64,000 bases of DNA from an uncultured Alphaproteobacteria bacterium (GCA_902577425.1 CACGZD010000001.1:113860-177859), one strand, 5' to 3'; counted from the first letter of the stretch, positions 5,999-64,000 are shown. Numbers and translations are program-made. Notes: generated by a model from the sequence alone, not told the origin.

Positions 5999-6427
5999 TT
6001 AATCACTAGGATTTTGTGCAACTAAAGCTACCTTTATGTAGCCAGCAGAATTTATAATTGACATTATTTCCATTACCCTTCCGTAAGCAACCACTCTATC
6101 ACCTCTAACATAAATTCTAGCTTCAGTATTTTGATCAGTTATAGCATTAAGTCTAGGTATTAAATTTTCAATTTCTACTTCTGACTCTCCTAGATAAATT
6201 AAACCATCCAGTTTAACTGTAATTTCTATAGGGTCTTTTTGATCTGTTAATGCATCTGCTTTAACTTTAGGTAAATCAACAGGAATTCCAACAGTTAATA
6301 AGGGCGCTGTAACCATAAAAACAATTAGTAATACAAGCATAACATCAACAAATGGAGTGACATTAATTTCACTCATCTGAGAATATCTTTTTGTTCTTCT
6401 AGTGTTTTTTTGGTTAAATGTTTGCAA
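5999..6427 (-). CDS. tolR: Biopolymer transport protein TolR (ExbD family)
   Basis: ExbD/TolR N-terminus (EINVTPFVDVMLVLLIVFMV), ~140 aa, follows tolQ. Confidence 0.87.
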   Translation of the reverse strand: MQTFNQKNTRRTKRYSQMSEINVTPFVDVMLVLLIVFMVTAPLLTVGIPVDLPKVKADALTDQKDPIEITVKLDGLIYLGESEVEIENLIPRLNAITDQNTEARIYVRGDRVVAYGRVMEIMSIINSAGYIKVALVAQNPSD

Positions 6428-6428
6428 A

Positions 6429-7148
6429 TTATTTATTTTCTAGTTGGCGAAAAAAGATTGTTGTAAATTCATCTATGAATGTTTCTAATGATATAAAATA
6501 TTTTGATAAGTCACTAGAAATTTTGTTGTAAGCCACTACTGCAGGTATAGCGACAAATAAACCTAGAGCCGTAGCAAACAATGCTTCAGCTATTCCTGGG
6601 GCAACAACAGCTAAATTTGTATTTTGTGCTATAGCAATCGATTGAAAACTATTCATAATTCCCCAAACTGTTCCAAAAAGACCTATGAAAGGAGCAGTAG
6701 ATCCTGCAGTTGCTAAAAAGGTTAGATTTTTTTCTATATTTTCAGATTCTTTATTAAATGTAACTTGCATTGTTCTTAACATTCTTTCTTTTAAGGAATT
6801 TAATTCTTCAGGCTTAAGATTTTTTGTATCTGCATTAGTTTTTTTCCATTCCGCAATAGCTGAACAAAATATTTTAGACTTAGGATCTGACTGATTATAG
6901 TTAAATGTTTCATATAAATCATGAAAAGAATTACCAGACCAAAAAATTTCATCAAACTCCTCATCTAATTTTTTTAATCTATTTATTCTAATAATTTTAC
7001 CGACCATAATATTCCAAGAATATATAGAAGATAAAATTAATACAATTATTACAGATTTAACAACCCAGTCAGCTCTTAAAAAAAGAGTTAAAAATGAAAA
7101 GTCTACTGAGCCTGAGGCTATTTCTGATGCGATATTAACTTCTTCCAT
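6429..7148 (-). CDS. tolQ: Tol-Pal system protein TolQ (MotA/ExbB family)
   Basis: Three TM segments and the conserved MotA/TolQ/ExbB core (APFIGLFGTVWGIMNSF, APGIAEALFATALGL). Confidence 0.9.
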   Translation of the reverse strand: MEEVNIASEIASGSVDFSFLTLFLRADWVVKSVIIVLILSSIYSWNIMVGKIIRINRLKKLDEEFDEIFWSGNSFHDLYETFNYNQSDPKSKIFCSAIAEWKKTNADTKNLKPEELNSLKERMLRTMQVTFNKESENIEKNLTFLATAGSTAPFIGLFGTVWGIMNSFQSIAIAQNTNLAVVAPGIAEALFATALGLFVAIPAVVAYNKISSDLSKYFISLETFIDEFTTIFFRQLENK

Positions 7149-50374: not shown

Positions 50375-51433
50375 ATGAATTATTTTTTTCAAGTATTTTC
50401 AAAAACTTTAGGTTTTTTGCTAGCTATAGTGTTTCTAATAGTTTTGATAAGCCTTTTTTTATTCTTTTTTAGAGAAAATCAACAAAAGTATTTTACTTAT
50501 TTAGAAGGAAATAAAGATTCTTCTGAAATTATTGCTATTTTAAAATTGAATGGACCTATAATTTCAGAACCTCCTAATTTTAATGATTATAAAATATTTC
50601 AAAATTTAGAGGTAATTTATCCATCGCTAATAAAAGAATACTTGAGAGAATTAGAACAAAACAATGCAAAAGGTCTAATAATATCAATAAACTCTCCAGG
50701 TGGTGGTGTTTCTGCTACACAAAAAATATATAATTCAATAAAAGACTTTAAAGAAAAAAATAAAATTCCTATTTTTTTTCATACTAAAGATATTCTTACT
50801 TCAGGAAGTTATTGGGTAGCTTTATCAGGTGATAAAATTTTTGCTGATTATGGAAGTATTATAGGAAGTATTGGTGTAAGAGGTCCAAATTGGCTATATT
50901 ATAATTCGCCAACTTTGTTATCTGAAGGTCTATTTGGAAGATCTGTAGAGTCACAAAATGGATTAAAATTATTTTCGAATACTGCTGGTATGTACAAAGA
51001 TATTTTTAATCCCTTTAGAAAACCAACAAAAGAAGAGATAAATAAACTACAAATCATGGTTGATGATATTTATGCTGATTTTGTTAATTTAGTTTCCATA
51101 AATAGAAAAATAGAAAAAAGAATTATTACTGATGAAATAGGTGCCATGGTTTTTAACTCAAAAAGAGCAAAGTTAAATTATTTAATTGATGATGAAAAAA
51201 ATATTAATGAAATTATTGCATTGATTTCAAAAAAATTAAAATTAGAAAATGAAAAAATTCTCATAAATAAGTATAATGAAAAATATAATTTATTTAATTT
51301 AAATTTTACTAACTTTTATAATAATAAAATAGCTAATAAAGATTTAAAAATTATGATTAATAAAAAGTTTTGTAATAATTACTATAACGAATTTAGTAGC
51401 ATAGCGCAAAATTATATATCAATTAATTGTTAA
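50375..51433 (+). CDS. sppA: Signal peptide peptidase SppA (36K type, S49 family)
   Basis: N-terminal TM segment and S49 motifs (INSPGGGVSA, SGSYWVA). I prefer ATG 50375, preceded by AAAGGTGG, over GTG 50369. Confidence 0.8.
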   Translation: MNYFFQVFSKTLGFLLAIVFLIVLISLFLFFFRENQQKYFTYLEGNKDSSEIIAILKLNGPIISEPPNFNDYKIFQNLEVIYPSLIKEYLRELEQNNAKGLIISINSPGGGVSATQKIYNSIKDFKEKNKIPIFFHTKDILTSGSYWVALSGDKIFADYGSIIGSIGVRGPNWLYYNSPTLLSEGLFGRSVESQNGLKLFSNTAGMYKDIFNPFRKPTKEEINKLQIMVDDIYADFVNLVSINRKIEKRIITDEIGAMVFNSKRAKLNYLIDDEKNINEIIALISKKLKLENEKILINKYNEKYNLFNLNFTNFYNNKIANKDLKIMINKKFCNNYYNEFSSIAQNYISINC

Positions 51434-52454
51434 AATTTAATATACTTTTTAATTTTTTAACTTTAACTATTAAATTTTTAAAATAATTACTTTCATCATA
51501 AATTTTAGGAATAATTGTTTTACGAGATCCAGGATTGTCAATATTTATCGAATCTGCTTCCAAATTAAAATAATCAAGATTTAAAATTTTTGCAATTGAG
51601 CTGTATCGATTTTTAAAAATATCTTCATATTTATGCTTATACTTTGGAGTAATCTCAATAATTTTTGTTCCTTTTTGACAAAACACCGTATTAACTAAAC
51701 CAGAACCAGTAGGTGATATGATAATTTCTGCACTTGAAAATAAGTCTATCTGCTCTGGTATACTAAGATTATGCAAATCTACAATTTGAAAGTTTAATTC
51801 AGATAAATAAGATAATACATCATTTTCATTTACTAAATTTCTATAGTTGCAGTTTTGTCTACTAATATATATTTTTTTCTTTTTACTTTTTTTATTAGAA
51901 ACCAAATTATTTAATATTTTAATAGAATTATTTTGATCTAAAAATTGTGGTATTTGTGAATTTTTAAATTTATAAAAACCATCATCTAAAAAAATAAATT
52001 TTGTTTCTATTTGATTTTTATTACAAATTATTTTTATAAAATTTCTAAATTTATTTGGAGTGTTTCTATGTAGTGCAATATTAATTTTTTTTTTATTTAT
52101 ATAAAAAATCCTTGGCAAAAAGCTAATTATATTTCTATAATAATTGTCCTGGGCACTAGATCCCAGAACAAAAATATCAGAAAAAGATTTGAAATTTTTT
52201 TTATTCAAATTAAAATTATTGATAAAATCTTTCTTATAAAAATTATCATATTTTAATGTATCTCCCCACATAAATAATTCAGAAAAAGTAAACATCTCAT
52301 CTGTGATAGGATAATAGTTATGTGTATCAAGATAAAAATTATCATTTAAAATATTACAAGTAAAATCAATATTATTACCTTTTATAGATTGAAACCGAGA
52401 AGATAGGTTGTCGAGTTTTTTTATTTCTAAATTATTATGGTCAGTAAGTTTCAT
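51423..52454 (-). CDS. Glycosyltransferase family 61 / DUF563-like protein
   Basis: C-terminal pattern of DUF563 enzymes (KIYISRQN...R.L.NE, FSSAEIIISPTGSGLVNTVFC). Its 3' end overlaps the convergent sppA by 11 nt. Confidence 0.6.
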   Translation of the reverse strand: MKLTDHNNLEIKKLDNLSSRFQSIKGNNIDFTCNILNDNFYLDTHNYYPITDEMFTFSELFMWGDTLKYDNFYKKDFINNFNLNKKNFKSFSDIFVLGSSAQDNYYRNIISFLPRIFYINKKKINIALHRNTPNKFRNFIKIICNKNQIETKFIFLDDGFYKFKNSQIPQFLDQNNSIKILNNLVSNKKSKKKKIYISRQNCNYRNLVNENDVLSYLSELNFQIVDLHNLSIPEQIDLFSSAEIIISPTGSGLVNTVFCQKGTKIIEITPKYKHKYEDIFKNRYSSIAKILNLDYFNLEADSINIDNPGSRKTIIPKIYDESNYFKNLIVKVKKLKSILNFNN

Positions 52455-52506: not shown

Positions 52507-52583
52507 TGGCGCGCCCGAGAAGAGTCGAACTCCTAACCTTATGATCCGTAGTCATACGCTCTATCCAATTGAGCTACGGGCGC
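52507..52583 (-). tRNA. tRNA-Arg (anticodon ACG), CCA encoded
   Basis: The reverse complement folds as a cloverleaf: acceptor GCGCCCG/CGGGCGC, D-arm GCTC/GAGC, anticodon stem TATGA/TCATA with loop CTACGGA, T-arm AGGAG-TTCGACT-CTTCT. 77 nt. Confidence 0.93.
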
Positions 52584-53271: not shown

Positions 53272-53820
53272 TTAATTTTTTTTCAGAACTTTCCATGCTA
53301 AAGATATTCTCAGGCCCATAAATCTTTGACTAGGAGCTTCAGCGTAATGACAAATATTTCCAGGAAAAAATACAGCTCTATTAGGTTTATAGCTTACAGT
53401 TTTAATAATTTCAGTATCCAAGGAGGGTTGCTGGCCCATGTGATTTAAAAAAAATAAAGCTCCGTTCCATCTTAAATCCCACTCAGGATTTGGATAATAC
53501 AAGAAAGTAAATGCATTAGCATCAGGTTCTTTTACATCAGAATGAGCAGTGCCATTTTGGTTTGCAGTTTGTCCATTTGCATAACAAGTTATTAATTGAT
53601 AATTAGAAGGATCAGATTTTAGAAATTTTTCACAGATTATTTTAAATAAGGTATCCTGGAAAAAACTTTCTTGATCCAATTTTTCCATATGCCAAAATCT
53701 TCCACCAGTTGCACTTCCACCAGTATAACTCCATTTAGGCCTTTGAAGTAATTCCCAAGTTTTTTTAGCTAAATCTGCTGGGAAGACATTATCAAAAACT
53801 TTTATTTCCAAATCAGCCAT
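53272..53820 (-). CDS. 2OG-Fe(II) oxygenase superfamily protein (small, prolyl-hydroxylase-like)
   Basis: HxD (GTAHSD), a distal His (ICHYAE) and an RxS-like motif (RISLAW) in the expected order and spacing. 182 aa. Confidence 0.6.
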   Translation of the reverse strand: MADLEIKVFDNVFPADLAKKTWELLQRPKWSYTGGSATGGRFWHMEKLDQESFFQDTLFKIICEKFLKSDPSNYQLITCYANGQTANQNGTAHSDVKEPDANAFTFLYYPNPEWDLRWNGALFFLNHMGQQPSLDTEIIKTVSYKPNRAVFFPGNICHYAEAPSQRFMGLRISLAWKVLKKN

Positions 53821-53903
53821 TATATAAAATAAAGTAAATTATATTTTACAAAAATTCTATATTTTTTTTTATTTAATATTTATATTAATAAGAATAAATT
53901 TAA

Positions 53904-55253
53904 ATGCCCAATAAACCCTCAAATATTAACTATGAACTATCAATTATAGCTGATCAGCTTAGTAAAAAGTTAGATAAAATTTCTACTGATGAAATTATAA
54001 AAAAATTAATTTATTTTAAAAAATCTGAACCTAGTGAAATCAAGGTATATAATTACTTATCACTTTTTTATAATAAAAGTTCAAAATATTTAAAAGCAAT
54101 AAATATTTGTAAAGAAGGTATTCATCTTTTTCCAAATGACTCAAATAGTTATTATATAATATCTGAATCTTTTTTAAAATTAAATAAAACAAATGAGGCA
54201 ATTAGTAATTTAAAAAAAGCTATATTAATAAATAATAATAATTATTTTGCACATAATGCATTAGGAAATATTTATTGGAAAAATGACAATATTGATGAAG
54301 CAATATGTTGCTTTCAAAATGTCTTAAAAATAAATCCTAATTTTAAAGATGCAGAAAAAAAAATAAAGATTGCTAGAAAAAAACGTATAGGACTAATTAA
54401 CCATCTTACTTATCATCTCCCAAAAAAGAGTGATAATTTGAGTACAATAAATATTGTTAATGATAAACTTCAAAAAATTAATTCAAATTTTAGTTTAAAT
54501 TGCCTAATTGAGGATGCAAAGATTATTGAACTAATAAATGACATTCAACAAATAATAGAAATAAACCAAATAAATACAGATTTTGAAGGATCTCAAATTT
54601 TTAGAAAAGGTATAATAAAGTATAACTGCACAAGACACTTTAAAATTTTTAATAAATTTAAAGTTATTCCTTATAATTGTTTTAGTTGTTATAAAATTCA
54701 AATTGAACCTAGAAATATTATTGAATTAATAAAATTATATTTGGTTCTTGAAAACTTAGATTTAGAAAAAAATTTAACAAGAAAATGTATGGTTGAAACT
54801 AGAAATAATATTTCAGGAAAATATAAAGGTTATATTTATTGTATAGGATTAAAGGAAGCTGAACACACCCTTAAATTAATTAATCCAATTTTAGATAATA
54901 CTATAGGAGTTAAAATACCAAGATTTATTAAAAGAGGTTGTTCAGAGTTTGGTATTACTTACCCAAATTATAAAGAATTGAATCCATTAAGTACAAATTT
55001 TATGAAATATAATAAAACATGGAAAGAAAAAGAGGAGATTATTGACAGTGAATTAAAAGAGCAGGTTAAAGGAAAAAAATTAATTGACGAAGATAAGTTC
55101 TATATGAAAAAAAATAAAATTGGAATTACTATAAGAGATGTATTGGTAATATATAATTGGTTATTTTATGCTCAAAAAATAAAAGATGAAAATGTTAAAA
55201 AATTGTGTAAAAAAATAACATATTCTAACTTTATTGATAAAAAATTTATATAA
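53904..55253 (+). CDS. TPR-repeat protein with uncharacterised Cys-containing C-terminal domain
   Basis: N-terminal ~150 aa has TPR-like repeats (YYIISESFLKLNKTNEAISNLKKAILINNNNYFAHNALGNIYWKNDNIDEAICCFQNVLKINPN). The C-terminal ~285 aa has conserved-looking Cys pairs (CTRH...CFSCYK, RKCM, RGCSEF) and no family I recognise. Confidence 0.6.
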   Translation: MPNKPSNINYELSIIADQLSKKLDKISTDEIIKKLIYFKKSEPSEIKVYNYLSLFYNKSSKYLKAINICKEGIHLFPNDSNSYYIISESFLKLNKTNEAISNLKKAILINNNNYFAHNALGNIYWKNDNIDEAICCFQNVLKINPNFKDAEKKIKIARKKRIGLINHLTYHLPKKSDNLSTINIVNDKLQKINSNFSLNCLIEDAKIIELINDIQQIIEINQINTDFEGSQIFRKGIIKYNCTRHFKIFNKFKVIPYNCFSCYKIQIEPRNIIELIKLYLVLENLDLEKNLTRKCMVETRNNISGKYKGYIYCIGLKEAEHTLKLINPILDNTIGVKIPRFIKRGCSEFGITYPNYKELNPLSTNFMKYNKTWKEKEEIIDSELKEQVKGKKLIDEDKFYMKKNKIGITIRDVLVIYNWLFYAQKIKDENVKKLCKKITYSNFIDKKFI

Positions 55254-55260
55254 TAAATAA

Positions 55261-55335
55261 TGGCTGGGGCGGTAGGATTCGAACCTACGAATGTCGGCTC
55301 CAAAAGCCGATGCCTTACCGCTTGGCGACGCCCCA
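55261..55335 (-). tRNA. tRNA-Gln (anticodon UUG), CCA encoded
   Basis: The reverse complement TGGGGCGTCGCCAAGCGGTAAGGCATCGGCTTTTGGAGCCGACATTCGTAGGTTCGAATCCTACCGCCCCAGCCA closely parallels E. coli tRNA-Gln. Anticodon loop TTTTGGA. Confidence 0.93.
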
Positions 55336-55425
55336 ATAATTATATTTTTTTCTTATATAATAAATGTCTATTATCGAAAACAAAACTTAAAAGGAACAAA
55401 AAAAACATTTATACCATAAATTAGT

Positions 55426-57159
55426 ATGAGCAAATACTTTAATGTATTACCAAAAAATGAAGATATTAAAACATCTGATATATTCAATGGTTGGGCAAAT
55501 ATTTACTCCCTTATAAAAAAAGAAACTCGTAATAAAAGCATGATTATTGCTATAGATGGTGATTATTCTACAAATTGGGATATTTATATTCAAAACTTAA
55601 ATTTAATTTTTAAAGATAAAAAAATAAAAATTTTAAATTTTAATAAATGCATTTTAAGTTTTAAAAAAATTAATAATTATTTTTTAAATCATTTATCAGA
55701 TAAAGATAAGTTATTTGGAAAAATTACTAATAAAAATATTGACAGCATAATCAACAAAAAGATTTTGAAACAATATAAAAGAATTTTTTTTAAAATTTTG
55801 CACTCAAATAAATTAAGTTACATTATATGTATTGGAACTGGCATTGGAAATTTAAATATTAACAAATATTTTGATCTATTATTTTATTCAAATTTAACTA
55901 GGCATGAATCAATAAATAGCAATAACTGGAGTAAAAAAATTGGCAAAACCCAAACCATAAGCCCTAATACTTTCTATTACCATATCTTTCCAATTATGGA
56001 AAAATATCAAAATCAACTTATAAAAAAAATTGATTATTACATTAATTTTAGTAAGAATAATTTTCCTGTAATAATATCAAATGATAATTTAAAAAAAATA
56101 ATTAATGCCTCAACTCAAATTCCTATAAAATTTAATCCTTTATATGAGCCGGGGGTTTGGGGTGGGCAATGGCTATGTAAAAAAAGAAAATTAAAATTGC
56201 CAAACTGCTCGATAGGTTTAGAATTAATTGCGCAAGAACAAAGTTTAATTTTTAAATTTAAAAATAAAAAATTAGAAATTCCTTTTTCATTAATAATGTA
56301 TTTAAAGTCTAAAAATATATTAGGAGTAAAATTTTCAAAAAAATATAAAAATTATTTTCCTGTAAGAATAGCCTATGATGATACTTATAAAAATAAAGGA
56401 GACAATCTTTCAATACAAGTTCATCCAGATAAAACATATATGAAAAAAAATTTTAATGAACCAATTGGTCAATCAGAAATATATTATATTACTGATAGTT
56501 ATAAAAAAAGTGGAGTATTTTTAGGTTTTAAAAAAAAGATATCAAAAAAAGAATTTATAAAAGATGTTATTAATTCTAGCAAAAAAAATGTAAAAATTGA
56601 TTATGAAAAATATATTAACTTTGAAAAAGCTAAAAAAGGAAATCTTTATTTAATTCCACCAGGAACCGTTCATGCTTCAGGCAAAAATAATTTTGTTTTA
56701 GAAATTAGTAACACACCCTATCGATATACATTTAAAATATATGATTATTGTAGAAAAAATCTAGATGGAAAAAAAAGATCATTATCTATAGATCATGCAT
56801 TAAAAGTTTTAAAATTTAATAGAACTGAAAATTGGATTAAACAAAATCTAATTCCCAAACCTCAATTTATAAGAAATATTAATCAAGGTACAGAATATCT
56901 ATTATCAAACAATAAAAATTTTACTTTTAACATTTACAGGATTCATTTTAAGAAATATTATTTTGATAAAACTCAAAATAGTCTTCATATTATTAATCTT
57001 GTAGAAGGATCCAAAATTAGGATAATAGCTAAAAAAAATAACCATGAAGTAGTAATCAAACATTCACAAACTCTACTTTTACCTCAATCATTAAATGAAT
57101 ATAAAATATTGAATATGGGTAAGGGCGAATGTAAAATTATTAAGATAATTTTGAAGTAG
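55426..57159 (+). CDS. Class I mannose-6-phosphate isomerase-like cupin with ~235-aa uncharacterised N-terminal extension
   Basis: The C-terminal half carries PMI type I motifs (YEPGVWGGQWL, LSIQVHPD, SEIYYI, PPGTVHASG). No family recognised for the N-terminal part. Confidence 0.6.
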   Translation: MSKYFNVLPKNEDIKTSDIFNGWANIYSLIKKETRNKSMIIAIDGDYSTNWDIYIQNLNLIFKDKKIKILNFNKCILSFKKINNYFLNHLSDKDKLFGKITNKNIDSIINKKILKQYKRIFFKILHSNKLSYIICIGTGIGNLNINKYFDLLFYSNLTRHESINSNNWSKKIGKTQTISPNTFYYHIFPIMEKYQNQLIKKIDYYINFSKNNFPVIISNDNLKKIINASTQIPIKFNPLYEPGVWGGQWLCKKRKLKLPNCSIGLELIAQEQSLIFKFKNKKLEIPFSLIMYLKSKNILGVKFSKKYKNYFPVRIAYDDTYKNKGDNLSIQVHPDKTYMKKNFNEPIGQSEIYYITDSYKKSGVFLGFKKKISKKEFIKDVINSSKKNVKIDYEKYINFEKAKKGNLYLIPPGTVHASGKNNFVLEISNTPYRYTFKIYDYCRKNLDGKKRSLSIDHALKVLKFNRTENWIKQNLIPKPQFIRNINQGTEYLLSNNKNFTFNIYRIHFKKYYFDKTQNSLHIINLVEGSKIRIIAKKNNHEVVIKHSQTLLLPQSLNEYKILNMGKGECKIIKIILK

Positions 57160-57161
57160 AT

Positions 57162-58070
57162 ATGAAAAATATTATAGCACTTGATATTGGAGGCACTTCA
57201 ATTAAATCAGCAATAATTAAATCCAATGGATCATTTTTAGAAAATTCTTGTAAAATTAGTGAGATTGATTCAAATCAAAACAAAGATTATATTATTAATA
57301 AGTTTATTTTTCCAATTAAACAATCTATTCAATATTTAAATGAACAGAAAATTGATTTGGATGGTATTGCTATCTCTATATGTGGTCCTTTTGACTATGA
57401 AAAAGGAATTTCATTAATAAAGAATCTAGATAAATATGAGTCAATTTATAATTTAAATATAAAAAAAATAATTAGAGAAAAATTATTTTTATCAAATAAA
57501 ATTCCTATAGTATTTGATCCAGATGCATGGAGTTTTGGAAGAGGAGAAGTAAATTTTAATAATTATGAAAATTATAATAAAATCATTGTATTCACTATGG
57601 GTACTGGAATTGGAAGTTGCTTTATTGAAAACAAAAAAGTTGTTTCAGAAGGCAAAGGTATTCCTTGTTTTGGGTGGGTCTCTGGCCAAAAATATAAAGA
57701 TGGAATATTAAATGACTACACTTCAAGTATATTTATGAAAAAAAAATATTTTGAGATAACTAAAGAAAATATTAGCATAAAATCTATGGCAGAAAGAGCT
57801 AGAAAAGAAGATAAAAATGCAAAAGCTATTTTTGATGAAATAGGCAATACTCTAGGATCTTTTTTAAAAGAAAATTTTGTAGATGAATTTAAGACAAATT
57901 GTATAATATTTGGAGGCCAAATATCTATGGCATCAGACCTATTTATTGACAAAATACAATATCATCTTCAAAATAGTAAGTATTTAAAAAAAATTACAAA
58001 AGCACAAGATATACAATTTGCTGCTCTAAAAGGTGCTGCTCAACTTTTATTTGAAAAAAAACTAAGATGA
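57162..58070 (+). CDS. ROK-family sugar kinase-like protein (lacks the CxCGxxGC zinc motif)
   Basis: ASKHA/ROK N-terminus ALDIGGTSIKSA, the second phosphate motif TMGTGIGS and a C-terminal GGQIS...AALKGAA. No Cys-rich zinc motif is present. Confidence 0.68.
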   Translation: MKNIIALDIGGTSIKSAIIKSNGSFLENSCKISEIDSNQNKDYIINKFIFPIKQSIQYLNEQKIDLDGIAISICGPFDYEKGISLIKNLDKYESIYNLNIKKIIREKLFLSNKIPIVFDPDAWSFGRGEVNFNNYENYNKIIVFTMGTGIGSCFIENKKVVSEGKGIPCFGWVSGQKYKDGILNDYTSSIFMKKKYFEITKENISIKSMAERARKEDKNAKAIFDEIGNTLGSFLKENFVDEFKTNCIIFGGQISMASDLFIDKIQYHLQNSKYLKKITKAQDIQFAALKGAAQLLFEKKLR

Positions 58071-58882
58071 ATGATTTAAGAAATCAATTAACAAAAGAAG
58101 GATATATAAAAATTAATAATTTAATTGACAAAAAATTACTTACAAAAATAAATGTTTTAACTACAGATCTAGTAAATAATCAAACTGAAAAAGAAAAAAA
58201 AGAACAGGTCTCAACTGGCAGTATGATTAGTGTATCAAATCATGAAAATTTTTTAAGTTTAATAATAAACGATGAATTACTTAAAATTTTTAGTAGAATG
58301 GGGTACAATAATCCTAAATGGTCTTCAGGTTATATTATTGGTAAAGAATCTAATTCAGCACCTCTTTATTGGCATACTGATTGGTGGGCATGGGATGACC
58401 CTATAAGTTTTTCTAAAGAACCTCCAATGATATTTGTAATGTTTTATTTAACAAATACAAATAAAACAAATGGTTGTCTAAGGGTAATTCCTGGATCTCA
58501 TTTAAAATTTAATGAAGTGCACAAATATATAAAGAAACACCATTCACATTATAGATTATATAATAATCCGGATGACCCCGTATTCAAATCTGTAAAAGAC
58601 GAATTAGATGTAACATCAAATTTAGGAGATGTTATTATTGGAGATGGTCGTATCCTTCATGCAGCTCATCCTAATTTAAGTAATAAAATGCGGACTGTTG
58701 TTACCTTATGGTATTACCCTGACTTTGATGAATTACCTGATCATATTAAAGCAAGTTCAGAGGATCATCACAAATGGCCAAAAAATTGGAATGAAAAATC
58801 ATTAGATATTTTAAAAAAATACTTTCCAAAATATGAAGGAAATGCAAAAAAAATTAAATGGAATAGAATAAGATATGAATAA
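58067..58882 (+). CDS. Phytanoyl-CoA dioxygenase (PhyH) family Fe(II)/2OG oxygenase
   Basis: HxD (WHTD), NGCLRVIPGSH, distal His (RILHAAHPN) and an Arg (KMRTVVTLWY) in PhyH order. 4-nt overlap with the ROK gene. Confidence 0.7.
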   Translation: MNDLRNQLTKEGYIKINNLIDKKLLTKINVLTTDLVNNQTEKEKKEQVSTGSMISVSNHENFLSLIINDELLKIFSRMGYNNPKWSSGYIIGKESNSAPLYWHTDWWAWDDPISFSKEPPMIFVMFYLTNTNKTNGCLRVIPGSHLKFNEVHKYIKKHHSHYRLYNNPDDPVFKSVKDELDVTSNLGDVIIGDGRILHAAHPNLSNKMRTVVTLWYYPDFDELPDHIKASSEDHHKWPKNWNEKSLDILKKYFPKYEGNAKKIKWNRIRYE

Positions 58883-59642
58883 AAAAGAGATTTCTATTCA
58901 GCTCTATACTGCTAGAAATTTCAAACCTTACGAAAATATATTTAAATTTTTATCTGAGCAAGGCTTCCAGGATGTTGAATTATTTGAAGTTGAAGCCTTT
59001 GATGAAACTAGAGATTTATTAGATAAATATAATTTAAATGCCAAATCCTCTCATATAGGATTTGATACTCTTAAAGATACAAAGAATATTATTTCAAATT
59101 TACAAAAGCTAAAAGTTAAACATGCAATTATACCTTGCCCAGTTGGAAAACCAGGAGGAAAGTTTGAAGCAATTTTTGATAAAAATGAAAAAGAATGGAA
59201 TGATTTTGGTAAAGAACTAGCTTCTTATGTAAAAATTTTTGAAGATAATGGAATGACCTTAGGTTATCACAATCACGCATTCGAATTTAATATGCTTCCT
59301 AGTGGTAAAATGCCTATAGAGTGTATTTTGAATCATAATGAAAAATTAAAATATGAAATTGATATAGGCTGGGTAGTAGCTGGAAAAGCAGATCCGATAT
59401 TTTGGATTAAAAAATATGCTTCGAGAATCATTGCTTGTCATTTGAAAGATTTTTCTTCACCTGATAAAAATTTAATTGATCACAATTCACAATGTGCAAT
59501 TGGTAATGGTTTTATAGATTGGAAATCTATTCTTTATGAAATAAAAAAAACCAACTGTGAAATTTTAGCCTTAGAACATGATGATCCTAAAGATTATAAA
59601 GACTATGTTTTGAAATCTTTAAATTTTTTGAGTAACATATAA
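58875..59642 (+). CDS. Xylose-isomerase-like TIM-barrel protein (sugar phosphate isomerase/epimerase family)
   Basis: Metal-ligand pattern of the AP endonuclease 2/XI-like TIM barrel (E..., YHNHAFEF, DIGW, HLKD, EHD). 8-nt overlap with the PhyH gene. Confidence 0.7.
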   Translation: MNKKEISIQLYTARNFKPYENIFKFLSEQGFQDVELFEVEAFDETRDLLDKYNLNAKSSHIGFDTLKDTKNIISNLQKLKVKHAIIPCPVGKPGGKFEAIFDKNEKEWNDFGKELASYVKIFEDNGMTLGYHNHAFEFNMLPSGKMPIECILNHNEKLKYEIDIGWVVAGKADPIFWIKKYASRIIACHLKDFSSPDKNLIDHNSQCAIGNGFIDWKSILYEIKKTNCEILALEHDDPKDYKDYVLKSLNFLSNI

Positions 59643-59643
59643 A

Positions 59644-60768
59644 ATGAAAGTTGGAATCATAGGTTGTGGAAATATTTCTGAAATATATTTTAAATGTCAA
59701 AATATTTATAATAATTTTGAAATAGTCGCTTGTGCAGATATAAAACTTGAAGCTGCAAAAAAAACTGCAGAAAAATTCAATTTAAAGTTTCAAAGTGTTG
59801 AAAATCTTCTTTCAAATAGTGAGATTGACTTAATAATTAATCTAACCATTCCATCAGCTCACAAAGAAATAACAATTAATTCTTTAAAAGCTGGAAAACA
59901 TTGTTTTAGTGAAAAGCCACTTGCTATGAACTTTGCTGAAGGAAATGAAATTCAAGAAATATCTAAACAAAAAAATCTTTATGTAGGTTGTGCTCCTGAT
60001 ACTTTTTTAGGTGCAGCAGGTCAAAAAGCAAGAGCTTTAATCGATGAAAATAAAATTGGAAATATAGTTCTGGGAACTTTTAATCTCATGAATCACGGAA
60101 TGGAACACTGGCATCCTAATCCAGATTTTTTTTTCAAACCTGGAGCAGGCCCTGTATTTGATGTTGGAGTATATTATATTACTCATTTAGTTAATTTAAT
60201 TGGTCCTGTAAAAACTATAAGCGCTATAAGTGTAACGGTAAATGATGAAAGAACTATTACAAGCGAACTTAGATATGGAGAAAAAATAAAAGTTGAAACT
60301 CCCTCAACATTAATAGGTACTTTAGGTTTTACAAATAATGCAAAAATACAGTTTTTTTGTTCTTGGGATGTTTGGAAACATCAACACTCAACAATAGAGC
60401 TATATGGTTTAAATGGATCAATGATATTACCAGATCCAAATTTTTTTAGTGGTGATATTTTGGTTGCTAATAAAGATAAAGATTGGCAATTAATCAACAA
60501 TGATAATATGTTGTTAGGGATACCAAACATGACTGATAGTGATGGATCTAAGATAGCAAATTATAGAGGCATAGGATTATCAGATATGATTGATTCTATT
60601 AAAAATCAAAGACAGGCGAGATGTTCGCTTACTCTTTCAATGCATGTTTTAGAAGTAATGGAAGGAATCATTAAATCTGCAGAAAAAGAAGAAATTTATA
60701 ATTTAAAAACTCAACCTTCTCAACCCAAATTTTTTGATGAGAATGAAATTAGAAAATTAAAAAAATAA
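59644..60768 (+). CDS. Gfo/Idh/MocA family NAD(P)-dependent oxidoreductase
   Basis: N-terminal Rossmann VGIIGCGNIS and the family EKP motif (CFSEKPLA). 374 aa. Confidence 0.8.
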   Translation: MKVGIIGCGNISEIYFKCQNIYNNFEIVACADIKLEAAKKTAEKFNLKFQSVENLLSNSEIDLIINLTIPSAHKEITINSLKAGKHCFSEKPLAMNFAEGNEIQEISKQKNLYVGCAPDTFLGAAGQKARALIDENKIGNIVLGTFNLMNHGMEHWHPNPDFFFKPGAGPVFDVGVYYITHLVNLIGPVKTISAISVTVNDERTITSELRYGEKIKVETPSTLIGTLGFTNNAKIQFFCSWDVWKHQHSTIELYGLNGSMILPDPNFFSGDILVANKDKDWQLINNDNMLLGIPNMTDSDGSKIANYRGIGLSDMIDSIKNQRQARCSLTLSMHVLEVMEGIIKSAEKEEIYNLKTQPSQPKFFDENEIRKLKK

Positions 60769-60798
60769 ATTTATATAAATTTTTGTTAAATATAATTA

Positions 60799-63450
60799 CT
60801 AAGAAATAACTATAACTTTTCTTTCATGGGGCTTAAAATCAATAAAATATTTTCCTGAAGAACTAGGATCTACTTTTTCTAACAATTTATTTGACATATT
60901 TTCAATAGATAATTTTTTTATCTTAATATAGTTAGATTCAATTTCAAATGTTTTATCCTCTGAAGAGTAGTTCATAAGATGTAAATAGGATTTTTTATTA
61001 TTTTTTTTCACATCAGTAATATAAATATTATTTGAAGCAATATTGAACATTTTTATATTAGTTCTTTTTTTAGAATTTCCTCTATCTTGGTAGTTATGAA
61101 CAATTGGTTCATATATATAAGGCATGATATCTTGTATACGCTGCAAAAGATCCTTTGCTTTTTCAAAATTGATTACAAATTCATATTTTATGAGCTTTGA
61201 TTCATCTGCTAAAAAATTAGTATTCCAATAATTATTATATAACCACGCAGAAAGCATTTTGTACTTTCTCTCTACTTTATTATTTTTGTCAAATTTACCA
61301 AAATTTAATCCTCCTACTTGCCATAGCGGACAATCTTTAGTTGAAATTGTAATACCTCCATTACTTCCATGATAAGATATCCAATTTTGAGTTGTAAGAT
61401 AGTGTTTACAAGAGAAAGGAAGGTGATCTTTATCTAACTGCAGTATTGCCCCGGCAGTTTCGAAATGACATTTTGTATTTGTTCCTGAATTTATTGGCAT
61501 TGGCAAATAAAGAGCATGAGGATTACTGTCTGGTTTTTTCAAAATTTCCACATTAATAATTAAAGATGATTGGTTAGTAAAAAGTTTGTAATTAATTTTA
61601 AATTCATCTCCGTTAGATAAATAAAACTCTTCTTCAACCGATATGTAATTTGTCTTTTTAAAAAATTTTCTTTCTTTTAATTTTGCATTCTCTTTAATAT
61701 TTTTCCATTTATTATTCCAAGAAGAGCTCCAATCAAGTGAGCCAGAGACAACAGGTTTGAAAATTTCAGTTCTTTTTTGAGTTTTAGGATATTCTAAAAT
61801 AGGAACACCAAAGAAAAATTCTTTATTATTTTTAATAAAATTATGTTTCTTTGAAAAAATATTTTCAATTCCTCCTTTTTCCGCAAATTGAACACTAATT
61901 TTTTTATTGCTAATTTCTAATTTTTTTATTTTTAAATCATTAGAAATACTTTTTTGAAAATCTATTTTTTTAGCAGTTAAAGGAGGTATTTCTATTGGAC
62001 CCAACCAATCAACAAGATCATCATTTATTTCAGACATGGTCATATCTTGACGATGGACTGAATTTACTTTTTTTTGTCTTGTTAAGTCAATTTCTCTTCT
62101 TACCCACCAATTGTCTTTTTCATTCATTTTATCAAAATCAAGTTTCATTTTTTTTCCTGCTTTATTCACTTCACTTAAATATGAATAGACACCTTTGAAT
62201 TTAGGAATTTTGATAAATGTTTTTATTTTAAAAGGAAGGGAGTTAAAAGCTATAGCGCTAGCTTTTTCTCCTCCCATTAATTGAGCTATTTTTTCAACAC
62301 CATCTCTTCTAAGCATTCTAGCTATTGATAAGCCTTCGTACGGTAAGACTTGTTTCATGATCCACTGCATTTTAGTTTCATCGGAAAAAGGGAAATTTAT
62401 TGATCTATCTGCTCCCCATGTATGTTCAGCATATAAAGCTAAGGATTCTTTTGATTTTTTTTCTAGATCTGTTCGTCTAATGTCATCTTTTTTAGTATGC
62501 GTAAAAAGATTAACTATGTTAGCCTGGCGTAAGGCTTTCTGACCAGCTGAATTTATACGAGTTTCATTAGGCGTACTTCCACAACCAAAATTCCACCAAT
62601 CAGACCAATCTCCTTGCATAGTTGGAATTTTTTCTTGGGTTTTTAGTTTTTCAAAAAATTCTGAAATGGTCACCATGCGTATAGGAAAATTTTTATATTT
62701 ATTATTCCAAGTTTTTAAAAAAGGAATGATATCTGGATTTGGAGGAGCATTATCATGATGATTAGTATTTGTAATCTGGGCCATAAAAAAATCATAAGAA
62801 TAATTTGGCTTTTTTAAAAACTTAGGAAAATTTTCAATTGTTTTTTTTGTTCCAGATATTGAAAATGGAATTTTTAAAAAGTGTCCTGCTGTAGCTCCGT
62901 ATATAGGGCCATTATAAGCAAGTAGTTTTCTTTTTGTTGGACTTTGCCAATAAAAACCACTTGGCCAAGGTTTTAAAGCATGTCCGTAAAATTCATTGAT
63001 AGCCATGCTAAAACCTTTAATACCAAAATCAAGCAATGCATCTACCATCCCCCAAGGAACGCCATTAATATCACAGTCCATGGCATAATTAATTTTCATT
63101 CCTTCTTTACGTAAAAAAGTAATCGGTTCTAAGTTTTCGATAATCATTTGATGGTCCATTAACGGCGTCATGTGCCATTTGCATCCGGCTACATCAATTA
63201 ATCCTTTGTGATGCAATTTTAAAAATCTTTTGCGATATTGGGGTGTTGTATTTTTCCACCAATCCATTGTTATTCCTGTAACCTCACATGTCCATTTAAA
63301 TTGACAATTAGGTTCATTAGATGCATTTTTTTCTGCTAACTCTATTGCTTCCTCTATATATCTTTTATGTAATTCAAATATTACAGGCTGAGGAGAAGTA
63401 TAACCTATATCAGTGTGAGAATGATGAAGAAGCAAAATTTCTTTAATCAT
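60799..63450 (-). CDS. GH38-like glycoside hydrolase (alpha-mannosidase family resemblance, N-terminal domain)
   Basis: The N-terminus LLHHSHTDIGYT matches the GH38 H-x-H-x-D metal-binding start, and the multidomain size (883 aa) fits. I could not confirm the catalytic nucleophile region by eye, so the family call is tentative. Confidence 0.5.
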   Translation of the reverse strand: MIKEILLLHHSHTDIGYTSPQPVIFELHKRYIEEAIELAEKNASNEPNCQFKWTCEVTGITMDWWKNTTPQYRKRFLKLHHKGLIDVAGCKWHMTPLMDHQMIIENLEPITFLRKEGMKINYAMDCDINGVPWGMVDALLDFGIKGFSMAINEFYGHALKPWPSGFYWQSPTKRKLLAYNGPIYGATAGHFLKIPFSISGTKKTIENFPKFLKKPNYSYDFFMAQITNTNHHDNAPPNPDIIPFLKTWNNKYKNFPIRMVTISEFFEKLKTQEKIPTMQGDWSDWWNFGCGSTPNETRINSAGQKALRQANIVNLFTHTKKDDIRRTDLEKKSKESLALYAEHTWGADRSINFPFSDETKMQWIMKQVLPYEGLSIARMLRRDGVEKIAQLMGGEKASAIAFNSLPFKIKTFIKIPKFKGVYSYLSEVNKAGKKMKLDFDKMNEKDNWWVRREIDLTRQKKVNSVHRQDMTMSEINDDLVDWLGPIEIPPLTAKKIDFQKSISNDLKIKKLEISNKKISVQFAEKGGIENIFSKKHNFIKNNKEFFFGVPILEYPKTQKRTEIFKPVVSGSLDWSSSWNNKWKNIKENAKLKERKFFKKTNYISVEEEFYLSNGDEFKINYKLFTNQSSLIINVEILKKPDSNPHALYLPMPINSGTNTKCHFETAGAILQLDKDHLPFSCKHYLTTQNWISYHGSNGGITISTKDCPLWQVGGLNFGKFDKNNKVERKYKMLSAWLYNNYWNTNFLADESKLIKYEFVINFEKAKDLLQRIQDIMPYIYEPIVHNYQDRGNSKKRTNIKMFNIASNNIYITDVKKNNKKSYLHLMNYSSEDKTFEIESNYIKIKKLSIENMSNKLLEKVDPSSSGKYFIDFKPHERKVIVIS

Positions 63451-63453
63451 AAA

Positions 63454-64000
63454 TTATCCTTTTCCTGTTCCCATAGATCCAAGAGTAAGTCCACGAATAA
63501 AATGTCTTTGAAGTAATAAAAAGATAACTAATGTTGGTATACTTGCCATGACTGTAGCCATTAAAATTGTAGGGCCATCCATTTGTGCATATAAGTTTTG
63601 CATTCCAACTAAGGCACTAGTAACTGGTCTCACTGAGGTTGATCTTGATAAAACCATTCCAAAAAGTAAATCATTCCATATCCAAGTAAATTGAATTAAA
63701 AAAACTAATAGCAAAGGAGCCTTAGCTAAGGGCATCATAATTTTATAAAGTATTTGCAAATTAGATGCTCCTTCTATTTTAGCTAATTCTTGTAATTCCC
63801 AAGGGACGGTTAAGAAAAAACCTCTTAAGACAAATGTTGCAAATGGTATACATATGGAAACATACATCAAAATAAGTCCAAATTTTGTATTATAAATTCC
63901 AATAGCTACATATGCTTCAAATAAAGGCAATAGATACATTTGAAAGGGAAATACAGTTCCAGAATATATAAGCAAAAACCAAAGTAAGCCATTTTTCATT
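63454..64000 (-). CDS. Carbohydrate-type ABC transporter permease (MalG/binding-protein-dependent family), C-terminal part, gene continues past window end
   Basis: EAA loop AKIEGASNLQILYKIMMPLAKAP and a typical C-terminal TM pattern. The Met at 63999 is probably internal. Its stop lies 3 nt upstream of the GH38-like gene start. Confidence 0.8.
   Translation of the reverse strand, partial: MKNGLLWFLLIYSGTVFPFQMYLLPLFEAYVAIGIYNTKFGLILMYVSICIPFATFVLRGFFLTVPWELQELAKIEGASNLQILYKIMMPLAKAPLLLVFLIQFTWIWNDLLFGMVLSRSTSVRPVTSALVGMQNLYAQMDGPTILMATVMASIPTLVIFLLLQRHFIRGLTLGSMGTGKG

Follow-up and report, generated by a model that had tools for sequence, protein, structure and literature searches.

Positions 55,426–64,000 of a 64,000-nucleotide stretch of DNA from an uncultured Alphaproteobacteria bacterium (GCA_902577425.1 CACGZD010000001.1:113860-177859; the whole stretch is called the window) carry a compact carbohydrate locus beside a tRNA-Gln gene. 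The locus encodes part of an ATP-binding cassette (ABC) importer, a GH38-like hydrolase, a ROK kinase, a protein resembling mannose-6-phosphate isomerase (PMI), a PhyH-family dioxygenase, a TIM-barrel protein and a Gfo/Idh/MocA protein (GFO). It probably imports an alpha-mannoside and feeds mannose into glycolysis (probability about 0.6), and it carries add-on modules. The island is a cassette-exchange site, and its ABC–GH38–PhyH–ROK core is stable among the relatives found. The host is a HIMB59/AEGEAN-169 alphaproteobacterium and not a true SAR11. Its closest genomes are a HIMB59-labelled metagenome-assembled genome and the single-cell genomes AG-447-P01 and AG-414-E06, which encode GH38-like proteins 94–98% identical to that of the window.

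In the proposed route, a binding-protein-dependent CUT1 importer, with its ATPase encoded elsewhere, would take up a small alpha-mannoside. The divergent, cytoplasmic GH38 enzyme would free mannose, the atypical ROK kinase would make mannose-6-phosphate, and the long-form class-I PMI would give fructose-6-phosphate. GFO and an AtOGE-type eliminase would break a second glycosidic bond through oxidation at C3 followed by beta-elimination, freeing a hexose that would again be a ROK substrate. PhyH would act on the substrate or its aglycone; speculatively, it could remove a modification such as a methyl group. Observed are the genes present, their folds, catalytic residues and neighbours, and the cassette indels, whereas all activities, the sequence of the steps and the sugar itself are inferred.

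The importer–GH38–ROK–PMI core

The core model draws its strongest evidence from conserved neighbourhoods. When plasmids were searched by tblastn with the GH38-like protein, two Deinococcus plasmids and one Arthrobacter citreus plasmid were identified. Their gene order is a "class I mannose-6-phosphate isomerase" (~590 aa), in some cases an AGE-family isomerase or ROK regulator, a ROK kinase, a solute-binding protein (SBP), two permeases and the GH38-like gene. The plasmid PMIs are 28–32% identical to the window PMI, and the Arthrobacter match (32%) spans residues 30–573, N-terminal domain included. SBPs of the two Deinococcus plasmids are 43–47% identical to the HIMB59 SBP (43–48% when Kaistia is included), and that of Arthrobacter only 26% over a partial alignment. 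On marine contigs L027 and L043, with GH38-like proteins 58–66% identical to that of the window, a single co-directional operon runs permease, permease, GH38-like, PMI, ROK and PhyH; the genes after it are unrelated and housekeeping. Linkage of these genes recurs in other marine lineages and other phyla, so that chance does not account for the arrangement. PMI, ROK, CUT1 importer and GH38-like protein form an old, horizontally mobile four-part unit. The importer-to-PMI link proposed from the sequence alone thus gains from neighbourhoods in three phyla, from ROK–PMI fusions and from the co-directional marine operon.

In other lineages the ABC and GH38-like core is retained, in most cases beside a second, more canonical GH38, and the downstream module is exchanged. 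Loci L001 and L002 carry a bona fide UxuA mannonate dehydratase (L001: 470 bits, cut-off 191) with KdgK and Eda. In L003–L007 and L011 the module comprises an SGL lactonase, PfkB, Eda and an AGE enzyme that matches D-mannose isomerase best; Deinococcus AJ005 also has an AGE-family enzyme with D-mannose isomerase as its best match. In Kaistia, Halocynthiibacter and Devosia the module consists of a lactonase, a short-chain dehydrogenase/reductase (SDR) and an enolase-superfamily dehydratase. Several alternative mannose-funnelling modules around one core are expected of a mannose-releasing system, and the pairing of this core with UxuA or mannose isomerase-like AGE enzymes suggests mannose as the product.

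The GH38-like gene (60799–63450, minus strand) encodes an 883-aa protein. Residues 5–275 match positions 2–258 of the 270-position Pfam profile Glyco_hydro_38N (PF01074) at 53.0 bits, above the cut-off of 25. An AF2 model built on 22 homologues has a pLDDT of 83 and a pTM of 0.87. The top 40 Foldseek matches in the PDB are all GH38 alpha-mannosidases and extend over the whole chain (TM 0.62–0.72, E 1e-34 to 1e-23), with 8–12% identity and superposition over ~930–1000 alignment columns. Their sources include Enterococcus, S. pyogenes, yeast (Ams1), Bifidobacterium, jack bean and Drosophila (GMII), and GH57, the next fold down, has a TM of only 0.25.

The GH38 motifs are also present. H10, H12 and D14 (HHSHTD), D127 (DCDING) and D233 (HHDNA) are invariant in a MAFFT alignment of the subfamily, the canonical GH38 paralogues of related loci and E. 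coli MngB. The family profile aligns with residues 342–511 of Drosophila GMII, and there H343 (EHTWG) is aligned to the Zn ligand H471. In the Drosophila enzyme, the metal ligands, nucleophile and acid/base are H90, D92, D204, H471 and D341. H10/H12/D14, D127, D233 and H343 are read as putative GH38 metal ligands, nucleophile and candidate acid/base, with H343 as the fourth metal ligand and D233 as the acid/base. The GH38 assignment made in the sequence-only reading thus stands on profile threshold, full-length fold and motifs. The subfamily has 595 representative homologues at E<=1e-30. The protein is probably a cytoplasmic enzyme, since its N-terminus leads directly into the first catalytic strand and no signal peptide was seen by eye. 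Its predicted role is that of an exo-alpha-mannosidase; to our knowledge, every characterised GH38 enzyme is an alpha-mannosidase or a mannosylglycerate hydrolase.

The PMI-like gene (55426–57159, plus strand) encodes a 577-aa protein. Its cupin domain covers residues ~227–577, of which 227–474 align to the B. subtilis PMI 1QWR (E 3.6e-15). The best Foldseek match of its AF2 model (pLDDT 88.5) is 1QWR (TMt 0.84), followed by the PMIs of Archaeoglobus, Salmonella and Candida, well before other cupins. The putative metal ligands Q331, H333, E351 and H416 do not vary across 22 homologues. The protein falls with class-I PMIs, as had been expected of it, and not with other cupins. It shares the cupin fold, the metal ligands and a YDY.R motif with the Bacillus-type enzyme over ~250 residues. 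It differs from that type in an extra N-terminal domain of ~225 aa, in scoring below the TIGR00218 cut-off, and in belonging to a family whose members are also fused to ROK. The extra alpha/beta domain (residues 1–225; window 55426–56100) has no Pfam match and no significant PDB relative, the best being the uridine-kinase-like P-loop protein 1rz3 (E 0.056). No Walker A motif is present, and the conserved motifs are IDG..G.DW and KTQ.I.P..YY. Proteins of the long-form family (~590 aa) occur widely, and fusions to a ROK kinase (~885 aa) are common among them, which suggests that kinase and isomerase act consecutively. The 577-aa protein would convert mannose-6-phosphate to fructose-6-phosphate.

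The ROK gene (57162–58070, plus strand) encodes a 302-aa protein that matches Pfam ROK (PF00480) at 80.7 bits over residues 5–296. It has a DIGGT ATP motif of the DxGxT type at 8–12 and DPDAW at 119–123, and matches the PDB glucokinase 2qm1 (E 1e-12). Canonical ROK glucokinases carry a Zn-binding GHx..CxCGxxGCxE motif. The window protein lacks this Cys cluster; the corresponding stretch is KGIPCFGWVSGQKY, and it is similar in orthologues beside GH38-like genes. The same atypical Zn-less type adjoins the GH38-like genes of Deinococcus and Arthrobacter. All NCBIfam matches are below cut-offs, the best being a glucokinase subfamily (80.5 bits), with BglK at 47. The protein is predicted to be a hexose 6-kinase acting on mannose and possibly glucose.

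Only the C-terminal 181 aa of the ABC permease (63454–63999, minus strand) are in the window, whose end truncates the gene. This part is CUT1-type, with a BPD_transp_1 Pfam match of 48.6 bits and GlcU-, UgpE- and MalG-like NCBIfam matches, none reaching its cut-off. It is 100% identical in loci L009 and L010, from which the rest of the transporter and its SBP were recovered. Beyond the window, their minus-strand operon encodes an SBP (410 aa), a permease (290 aa), a permease (283 aa) and then the GH38-like protein. No ABC ATPase or regulator was seen in this extended HIMB59-type locus. An HpcH/HpaI-family aldolase (251 aa) is encoded at 6064–6819 of both L009 and L010, divergent from the SBP gene. 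Its best NCBIfam matches are HpaI and 2-keto-3-deoxy-rhamnonate aldolase, both under cut-off, and it may belong to the system.

Several results count against a mannoside-specific core. For the GH38-like protein, the link to solved GH38 enzymes came only from the family profile and the fold search: phmmer against PDB sequences found nothing at E<=1, and the middle and C-terminal GH38 Pfam domains (PF09261, PF07748, PF17677) had no sequence match. Identity to characterised GH38 enzymes is only 10–16%, with E. coli MngB at 16%. The assignment of H343 is ambiguous, as MAFFT pairs the "HD" of MngB with "ADRS" and the model has a pLDDT <50 at 340–344. No characterised member of this subfamily and no measured activity were found, and RefSeq labels the inspected plasmid homologues "hypothetical protein". 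Apart from TIGR00218 manA, where it reaches 33.3 bits (cut-off 116.2), the PMI-like protein matches no NCBIfam family and, at E<=0.01, no Pfam family; it is therefore not to be filed as a ManA equivalog. PMI and ROK both score far below NCBIfam equivalog cut-offs, so that their mannose specificity is putative. Against solved structures, the SBP has only generic CUT1 relatives (NagB1, AcbH) and gives no substrate clue. In L001, the UxuA, KdgK and Eda genes may be part of a separate hexuronate pathway. For the enolase-superfamily neighbours in Kaistia, Halocynthiibacter and Devosia, ManD was considered; their best NCBIfam match is glucarate dehydratase (171 bits, cut-off 829), and they were dropped as mannose evidence.

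These points would fit a GH38-like enzyme that is not mannoside-specific, with the PMI-like protein and ROK using another hexose or hexose phosphate and the locus catabolising another small glycoside. The low identity to characterised GH38 enzymes, the absence of equivalog-level matches for PMI or ROK and the Rhizobiales neighbours that are not ManD all agree with it, as does the fact that the best solved SBP relatives bind chitin oligosaccharides or galactose. It is judged rather unlikely: all 40 top structural matches are alpha-mannosidases, and three independent mannose-linked families (PMI fold, UxuA and mannose isomerase-like AGE) accompany the core.

The order of kinase and hydrolase could also be reversed. 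ROK would then phosphorylate the imported glycoside at C6, as BglK does, and the GH38-like enzyme would hydrolyse the 6-phospho-mannoside to mannose-6-phosphate and aglycone, leaving the last step to PMI; an ABC importer and a kinase would replace the phosphotransferase system (PTS). E. coli MngB, which acts on a phosphorylated (6-phospho) product, is a GH38 enzyme encoded, by annotation, beside a mannosylglycerate-specific PTS enzyme II. The window ROK matches BglK over its full length (NCBIfam 47 bits, PDB 4htl) and lacks the Zn motif typical of hexokinase-type ROKs. However, ROK–PMI fusions argue for consecutive steps on free hexose, the glucokinase subfamily outscores BglK, and the GH38-like protein is distant from MngB, so that this order is distinctly improbable.

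Cassette exchange and the host lineage

Breakpoints were located by blastn of the window against the three closest genomes (L008, L009 and L010), and presence or absence by tblastn with metagenome contigs added. Nine HIMB59-type loci have the downstream side visible; PMI status is readable in all except L024, L036 and L039, where contigs end. The pattern-based scans recover close relatives only, and core stability is stated among these. In the relatives with cassette indels, DNA is ~90–94% identical and GH38-like proteins are 94–98% identical.

Three cassettes vary. The PMI cassette (~55336–57097) occurs in the window, L010, L034 and L041; L008 and L009 lack it and have tRNA-Gln directly beside the ROK gene. 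The eliminase and GFO cassette (58874–60781) occurs in the window, L008, L009 and L036 and is missing from L010, L024, L034, L039 and L041; in L010, ~10 bp take its place. Among the nine loci, only the window was seen to have both the PMI gene and the eliminase/GFO cassette. A third cassette (53272–55253, with blastn breakpoints at 53282–55257) lies between an SH3-domain gene and tRNA-Gln and is found in the window and L008 but missing from L009 and L010; its products are a 182-aa 2OG-Fe(II) oxygenase (minus strand) and a 449-aa TPR protein (plus strand). The ROK gene has two allele classes: the window protein is 92% identical to that of L010 and 66–67% identical to those of L008 and L009, in loci where flanking genes are 86–98% identical. 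This suggests recombinational replacement and not gradual divergence. The locus had been called accessory, which is borne out only for the PMI gene and the TIM and GFO cassette; the ABC–GH38–PhyH–ROK core is kept in the relatives found.

The plus-strand unit of five genes is convergent with the minus-strand pair. Its junctions in the open reading frame (ORF) list are, in order, a 2-nt gap, a 4-nt overlap, an 8-nt overlap and a 1-nt gap, and 3 nt separate the permease and GH38-like genes. The tRNA-Gln (anticodon ttg; 55261–55335, minus strand) was detected by ARAGORN and lies 90 nt upstream of the first plus-strand gene. It marks the edge of the variable region and occupies the same place in L008, L009 and L010, which keep both it and tRNA-Arg(acg) (52507–52583). 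On the other side of the tRNAs are housekeeping genes, including GroEL/ES and an S49 peptidase; GroEL is 100% identical in relatives. The ORF list and ARAGORN reproduced every coordinate of the seven ORFs, junctions and tRNA-Gln given in the sequence-only reading, and the families named there have Pfam matches above gathering scores for all but the PMI-like protein. That reading had also described the locus as very rich in K, N and I. These residues make up 32% of the six complete proteins; the composition claim holds only in part. GC content is 0.268 in the region and 0.281 in the window, with the PMI and ROK part at 0.216–0.226, near the window minimum. Scans for promoters and terminators carried no information in such AT-rich sequence: 66 promoter-like sites were counted where 62 were expected, and 1 terminator-like site where 3 were. 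Just outside the locus, a short variable stretch is bracketed by tRNA-Arg and tRNA-Gln, and a GT61-family glycosyltransferase gene (343 aa; 51423–52454) adjoins tRNA-Arg(acg).

The host lineage is the former "SAR11 subclade V", now placed apart from SAR11 (PMC10308909). It is metabolically distinct, with expanded sugar transport and metabolism, and makes up as much as several per cent of cells in oligotrophic surface waters; a cultured strain grew poorly on the tested medium (PMC10308909). The contrast drawn earlier with a SAR11-type host poor in glycoside hydrolases is weaker than claimed, as the lineage lies outside SAR11 and is known for broad sugar use. Neither PMC10308909 nor the HIMB59 genomic-island paper mentions mannosidases or GH38, and literature searches returned no paper on GH38 or alpha-mannosidase in SAR11 or HIMB59. 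The locus is not universal, and no paper assigning it to a pathway was found.

The predicted eliminase cassette and the PhyH oxygenase

The mannoside route as first proposed is incomplete, since it gave no role to three of the five plus-strand genes (PhyH, TIM and GFO). The TIM-barrel gene (58875–59642, plus strand) encodes a 255-aa protein with a xylose-isomerase-like AP_endonuc_2 Pfam match (53.7 bits). It is a full-length homologue of the 3-keto-O-glycoside beta-eliminase AtOGE (8BVK; E 1.8e-29, residues 6–253 against 10–252). AtOGE is a Mn-dependent eliminase that cleaves C3-oxidised O-glucosides in A. tumefaciens, and its residue roles have been described (PMC10628242). Identity extends to the active site, where the four Mn-binding residues (H132, D163, H189 and E233) and the catalytic H134 are all shared.

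The GFO gene (59644–60768, plus strand) encodes a 374-aa protein with a GFO_IDH_MocA Pfam match of 78.6 bits, a Rossmann GxGxxS motif at 7–12 and EKP at 90–92. Its best solved relatives are DgpA (7xr9 and 9m3d, 58–59 bits), glycoside C3 oxidoreductases of a C-glycoside pathway. The best NCBIfam match is levoglucosan dehydrogenase (66 bits, cut-off 650). GFO would be a glycoside C3 dehydrogenase, a 3-keto-sugar reductase or both, partnering the eliminase. The two genes are gained and lost together as one 1.9-kb cassette. TIM and GFO most likely point to a second, non-hydrolytic mode of glycoside cleavage.

Two observations weigh against this assignment. Known oxidation/beta-elimination pathways also use a hydratase and a reductase, and the locus has no hydratase-type second TIM protein (AtHYD or BT2156-type) and no GlycDH. 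A 42% identical GFO orthologue lies in a Devosia cluster that has no eliminase, with lactonase, SDR and dehydratase genes as neighbours; GFO may thus have another role, such as that of an aldose dehydrogenase. DgpA passes hydride back to the 3-keto sugar. By analogy, the pair could suffice, with GFO returning the hydride, or its partners could be encoded elsewhere.

Among characterised systems, the GlycDH–AtOGE–AtHYD–Gfo pathway of A. tumefaciens is like the window in its AtOGE-type protein, with the same Mn site and catalytic His, and the PUE DgpA–DgpBC system of a gut bacterium contains the nearest solved relatives of the window GFO. Unlike the AtOGE, Dgp and levoglucosan LgdA/B/C pathways, the module here comprises two genes only and lacks both a hydratase and a flavin GlycDH; it is embedded in the GH38 locus of a streamlined marine bacterium. 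Its GFO is far below the equivalog cut-offs of the LgdA and BT2158/9 families. BT2156–2160 of B. thetaiotaomicron is another oxidation/beta-elimination system; the PDB entries 8TCD, 8TCS and 8TCT presumably come from a study of alternative glycan breakdown in this species, which a literature search did not confirm. Haloarchaeal GFO and TIM genes were ruled out as orthologues of the window pair at 23–24% identity. On a Haladaptatus salinisoli plasmid (L023, 8992–11768), the GH38-like gene is split into adjacent 413- and 512-aa ORFs. It lies near Gfo/Idh/MocA, sugar-phosphate isomerase/epimerase and ThuA genes, and there are similar hits in Halomontanus and Haloprofundus; all are haloarchaeal megaplasmids.

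A last alternative, that the two convergent units are unrelated neighbours in a flexible island and the plus-strand genes belong to another sugar or cyclitol pathway (with GFO and TIM IolG/IolE-like, or GFO an aldose 1-dehydrogenase), accords with the separate transcripts of convergent units, the independent gain and loss of cassettes, the weak matches of TIM to IolE (39.8 bits) and of GFO to IolG (58.8 bits), and the Devosia neighbours, but it is very improbable. In L027 and L043 the GH38-like gene has PMI, ROK and PhyH after it in the same orientation, Deinococcus and Arthrobacter keep PMI and ROK together with their ABC and GH38-like genes, and TIM matches AtOGE far better than IolE (106 against 40 bits), with every catalytic residue present; the alternative therefore survives only for the GFO and TIM cassette and PhyH.

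The PhyH gene (58067–58882, plus strand) encodes a 271-aa protein with a PF05721 match of 73.5 bits. Read by eye, H103-T-D105, H201 and R209 are the usual iron and 2-oxoglutarate ligands. NCBIfam and PDB matches are weak (ectoine hydroxylase 31.5 bits, cut-off 336.5; SnoK E 7e-4). PhyH adjoins the GH38-like gene in every HIMB59-type locus with that side visible and is also in the L027 and L043 operons. In a group with 59–65% GH38-like identity, a 34–38% identical PhyH and an FA_hydroxylase flank the GH38-like gene. Soil versions of the gene set lack PhyH. PhyH is thus the most constant GH38-like partner in marine lineages. It is also the main unexplained feature of the mannoside route and counts against it, since no step from a mannoside to fructose-6-phosphate needs an oxygenase.

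An FA_hydroxylase-family (PF04116) membrane oxygenase gene abuts the GH38-like gene in L003 (10473–11429) and also in L004–L007, L028–L031 and L038. This oxygenase has no NCBIfam assignment in the L003 group, and L003-type loci have two oxygenases (PF04116 and a distant PhyH) next to the glycosidase. A 577-aa protein next to PhyH in L045, with no Pfam hit, resembled the long PMI and was found to be unrelated.

Contexts of more distant PhyH homologues provide a lead. In L017 (4601–8818), a 41% identical homologue is directly beside bona fide HxlA and HxlB of the formaldehyde-fixing ribulose monophosphate (RuMP) pathway, in a cluster that also encodes a PfkB kinase, an FrlB-like SIS protein, LacI and a CUT1 ABC system. 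Formaldehyde fixation in a sugar-uptake cluster suggests oxidative demethylation of a sugar derivative. In L019, a 44% identical homologue occurs with an MtaA/CmuA-like methyltransferase, an FrlB-like SIS protein, PfkB, GFO and a TIM protein. The methyl or formaldehyde link was found in two of the six sampled contexts of 38–44% identical homologues (L017 and L019) and in none of the other four. Known sugar O-demethylases are P450s, and the formaldehyde is detoxified via RuMP (PMC6292453, PMC9400963). That PhyH is a sugar demethylase is a lead only, and an unlikely one at present.

A broader proposal is just as tentative. The substrate of the marine island would be an alpha-mannoside that carries a modification, such as O-methylation, and derives for instance from algae or dissolved organic matter. 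PhyH, joined in the SAR11-like group by the FA_hydroxylase-type enzyme, would represent a new class of oxygenases, distinct from P450s, that strip modifications from sugars and so make them accessible to the kinase. In some HIMB59 strains, the GFO and AtOGE-type proteins would together form a non-hydrolytic "glycosidase" for a second linkage.

Known systems and significance

In architecture the locus resembles the streptococcal N-glycan locus (S. pneumoniae SP_2141–2146 with ABCNG; SpGH38), which has an ATPase-less, binding-protein ABC importer for oligosaccharides containing mannose, an intracellular GH38 exo-alpha-mannosidase and a ROK kinase (PMC5215778). Structures of S. pyogenes SpyGH38 are among the best fold matches, but the window enzyme is only ~10% identical to it by structural alignment and belongs to another subfamily. 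The streptococcal locus has GH125, GH92, GH29 and GH20 enzymes for host N-glycans and has no PMI, PhyH, eliminase or GFO. The host of the window is a free-living oligotroph, unlike the setting of the streptococcal system.

The E. coli MngR–MngA–MngB system with ManA shares the logic of small alpha-mannoside uptake, GH38 cleavage and entry of mannose-6-phosphate via PMI, and MngB shares the metal-ligand and nucleophile motifs of the window protein. Uptake in E. coli is by a phosphorylating PTS, and the annotated mngR–mngA–mngB stretch has no ABC importer or ROK. The HIMB59-type system differs from these by a GH38 subfamily for which no characterised member was found, by a long PMI and a Zn-less ROK, by a constant PhyH, and by an AtOGE-type module in some strains.

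The locus gives a testable substrate hypothesis for HIMB59/AEGEAN-169, a small alpha-mannoside. It also draws attention to an uncharacterised enzyme set, the GH38 subfamily, the long-form PMI and the Zn-less ROK, that recurs in Deinococcota, Actinomycetota and Alphaproteobacteria. The cassette indels illustrate on a small scale how catabolic capacity can differ within streamlined populations at one fixed site in the genome. We know of no earlier case of an oxidative beta-elimination route in streamlined pelagic bacterioplankton; if the GFO and AtOGE-type pair works as proposed, it would be the first, in a hybrid hydrolytic and eliminative system. If PhyH or the eliminase module acts as speculated, the island would bring new chemistry to marine carbohydrate turnover.

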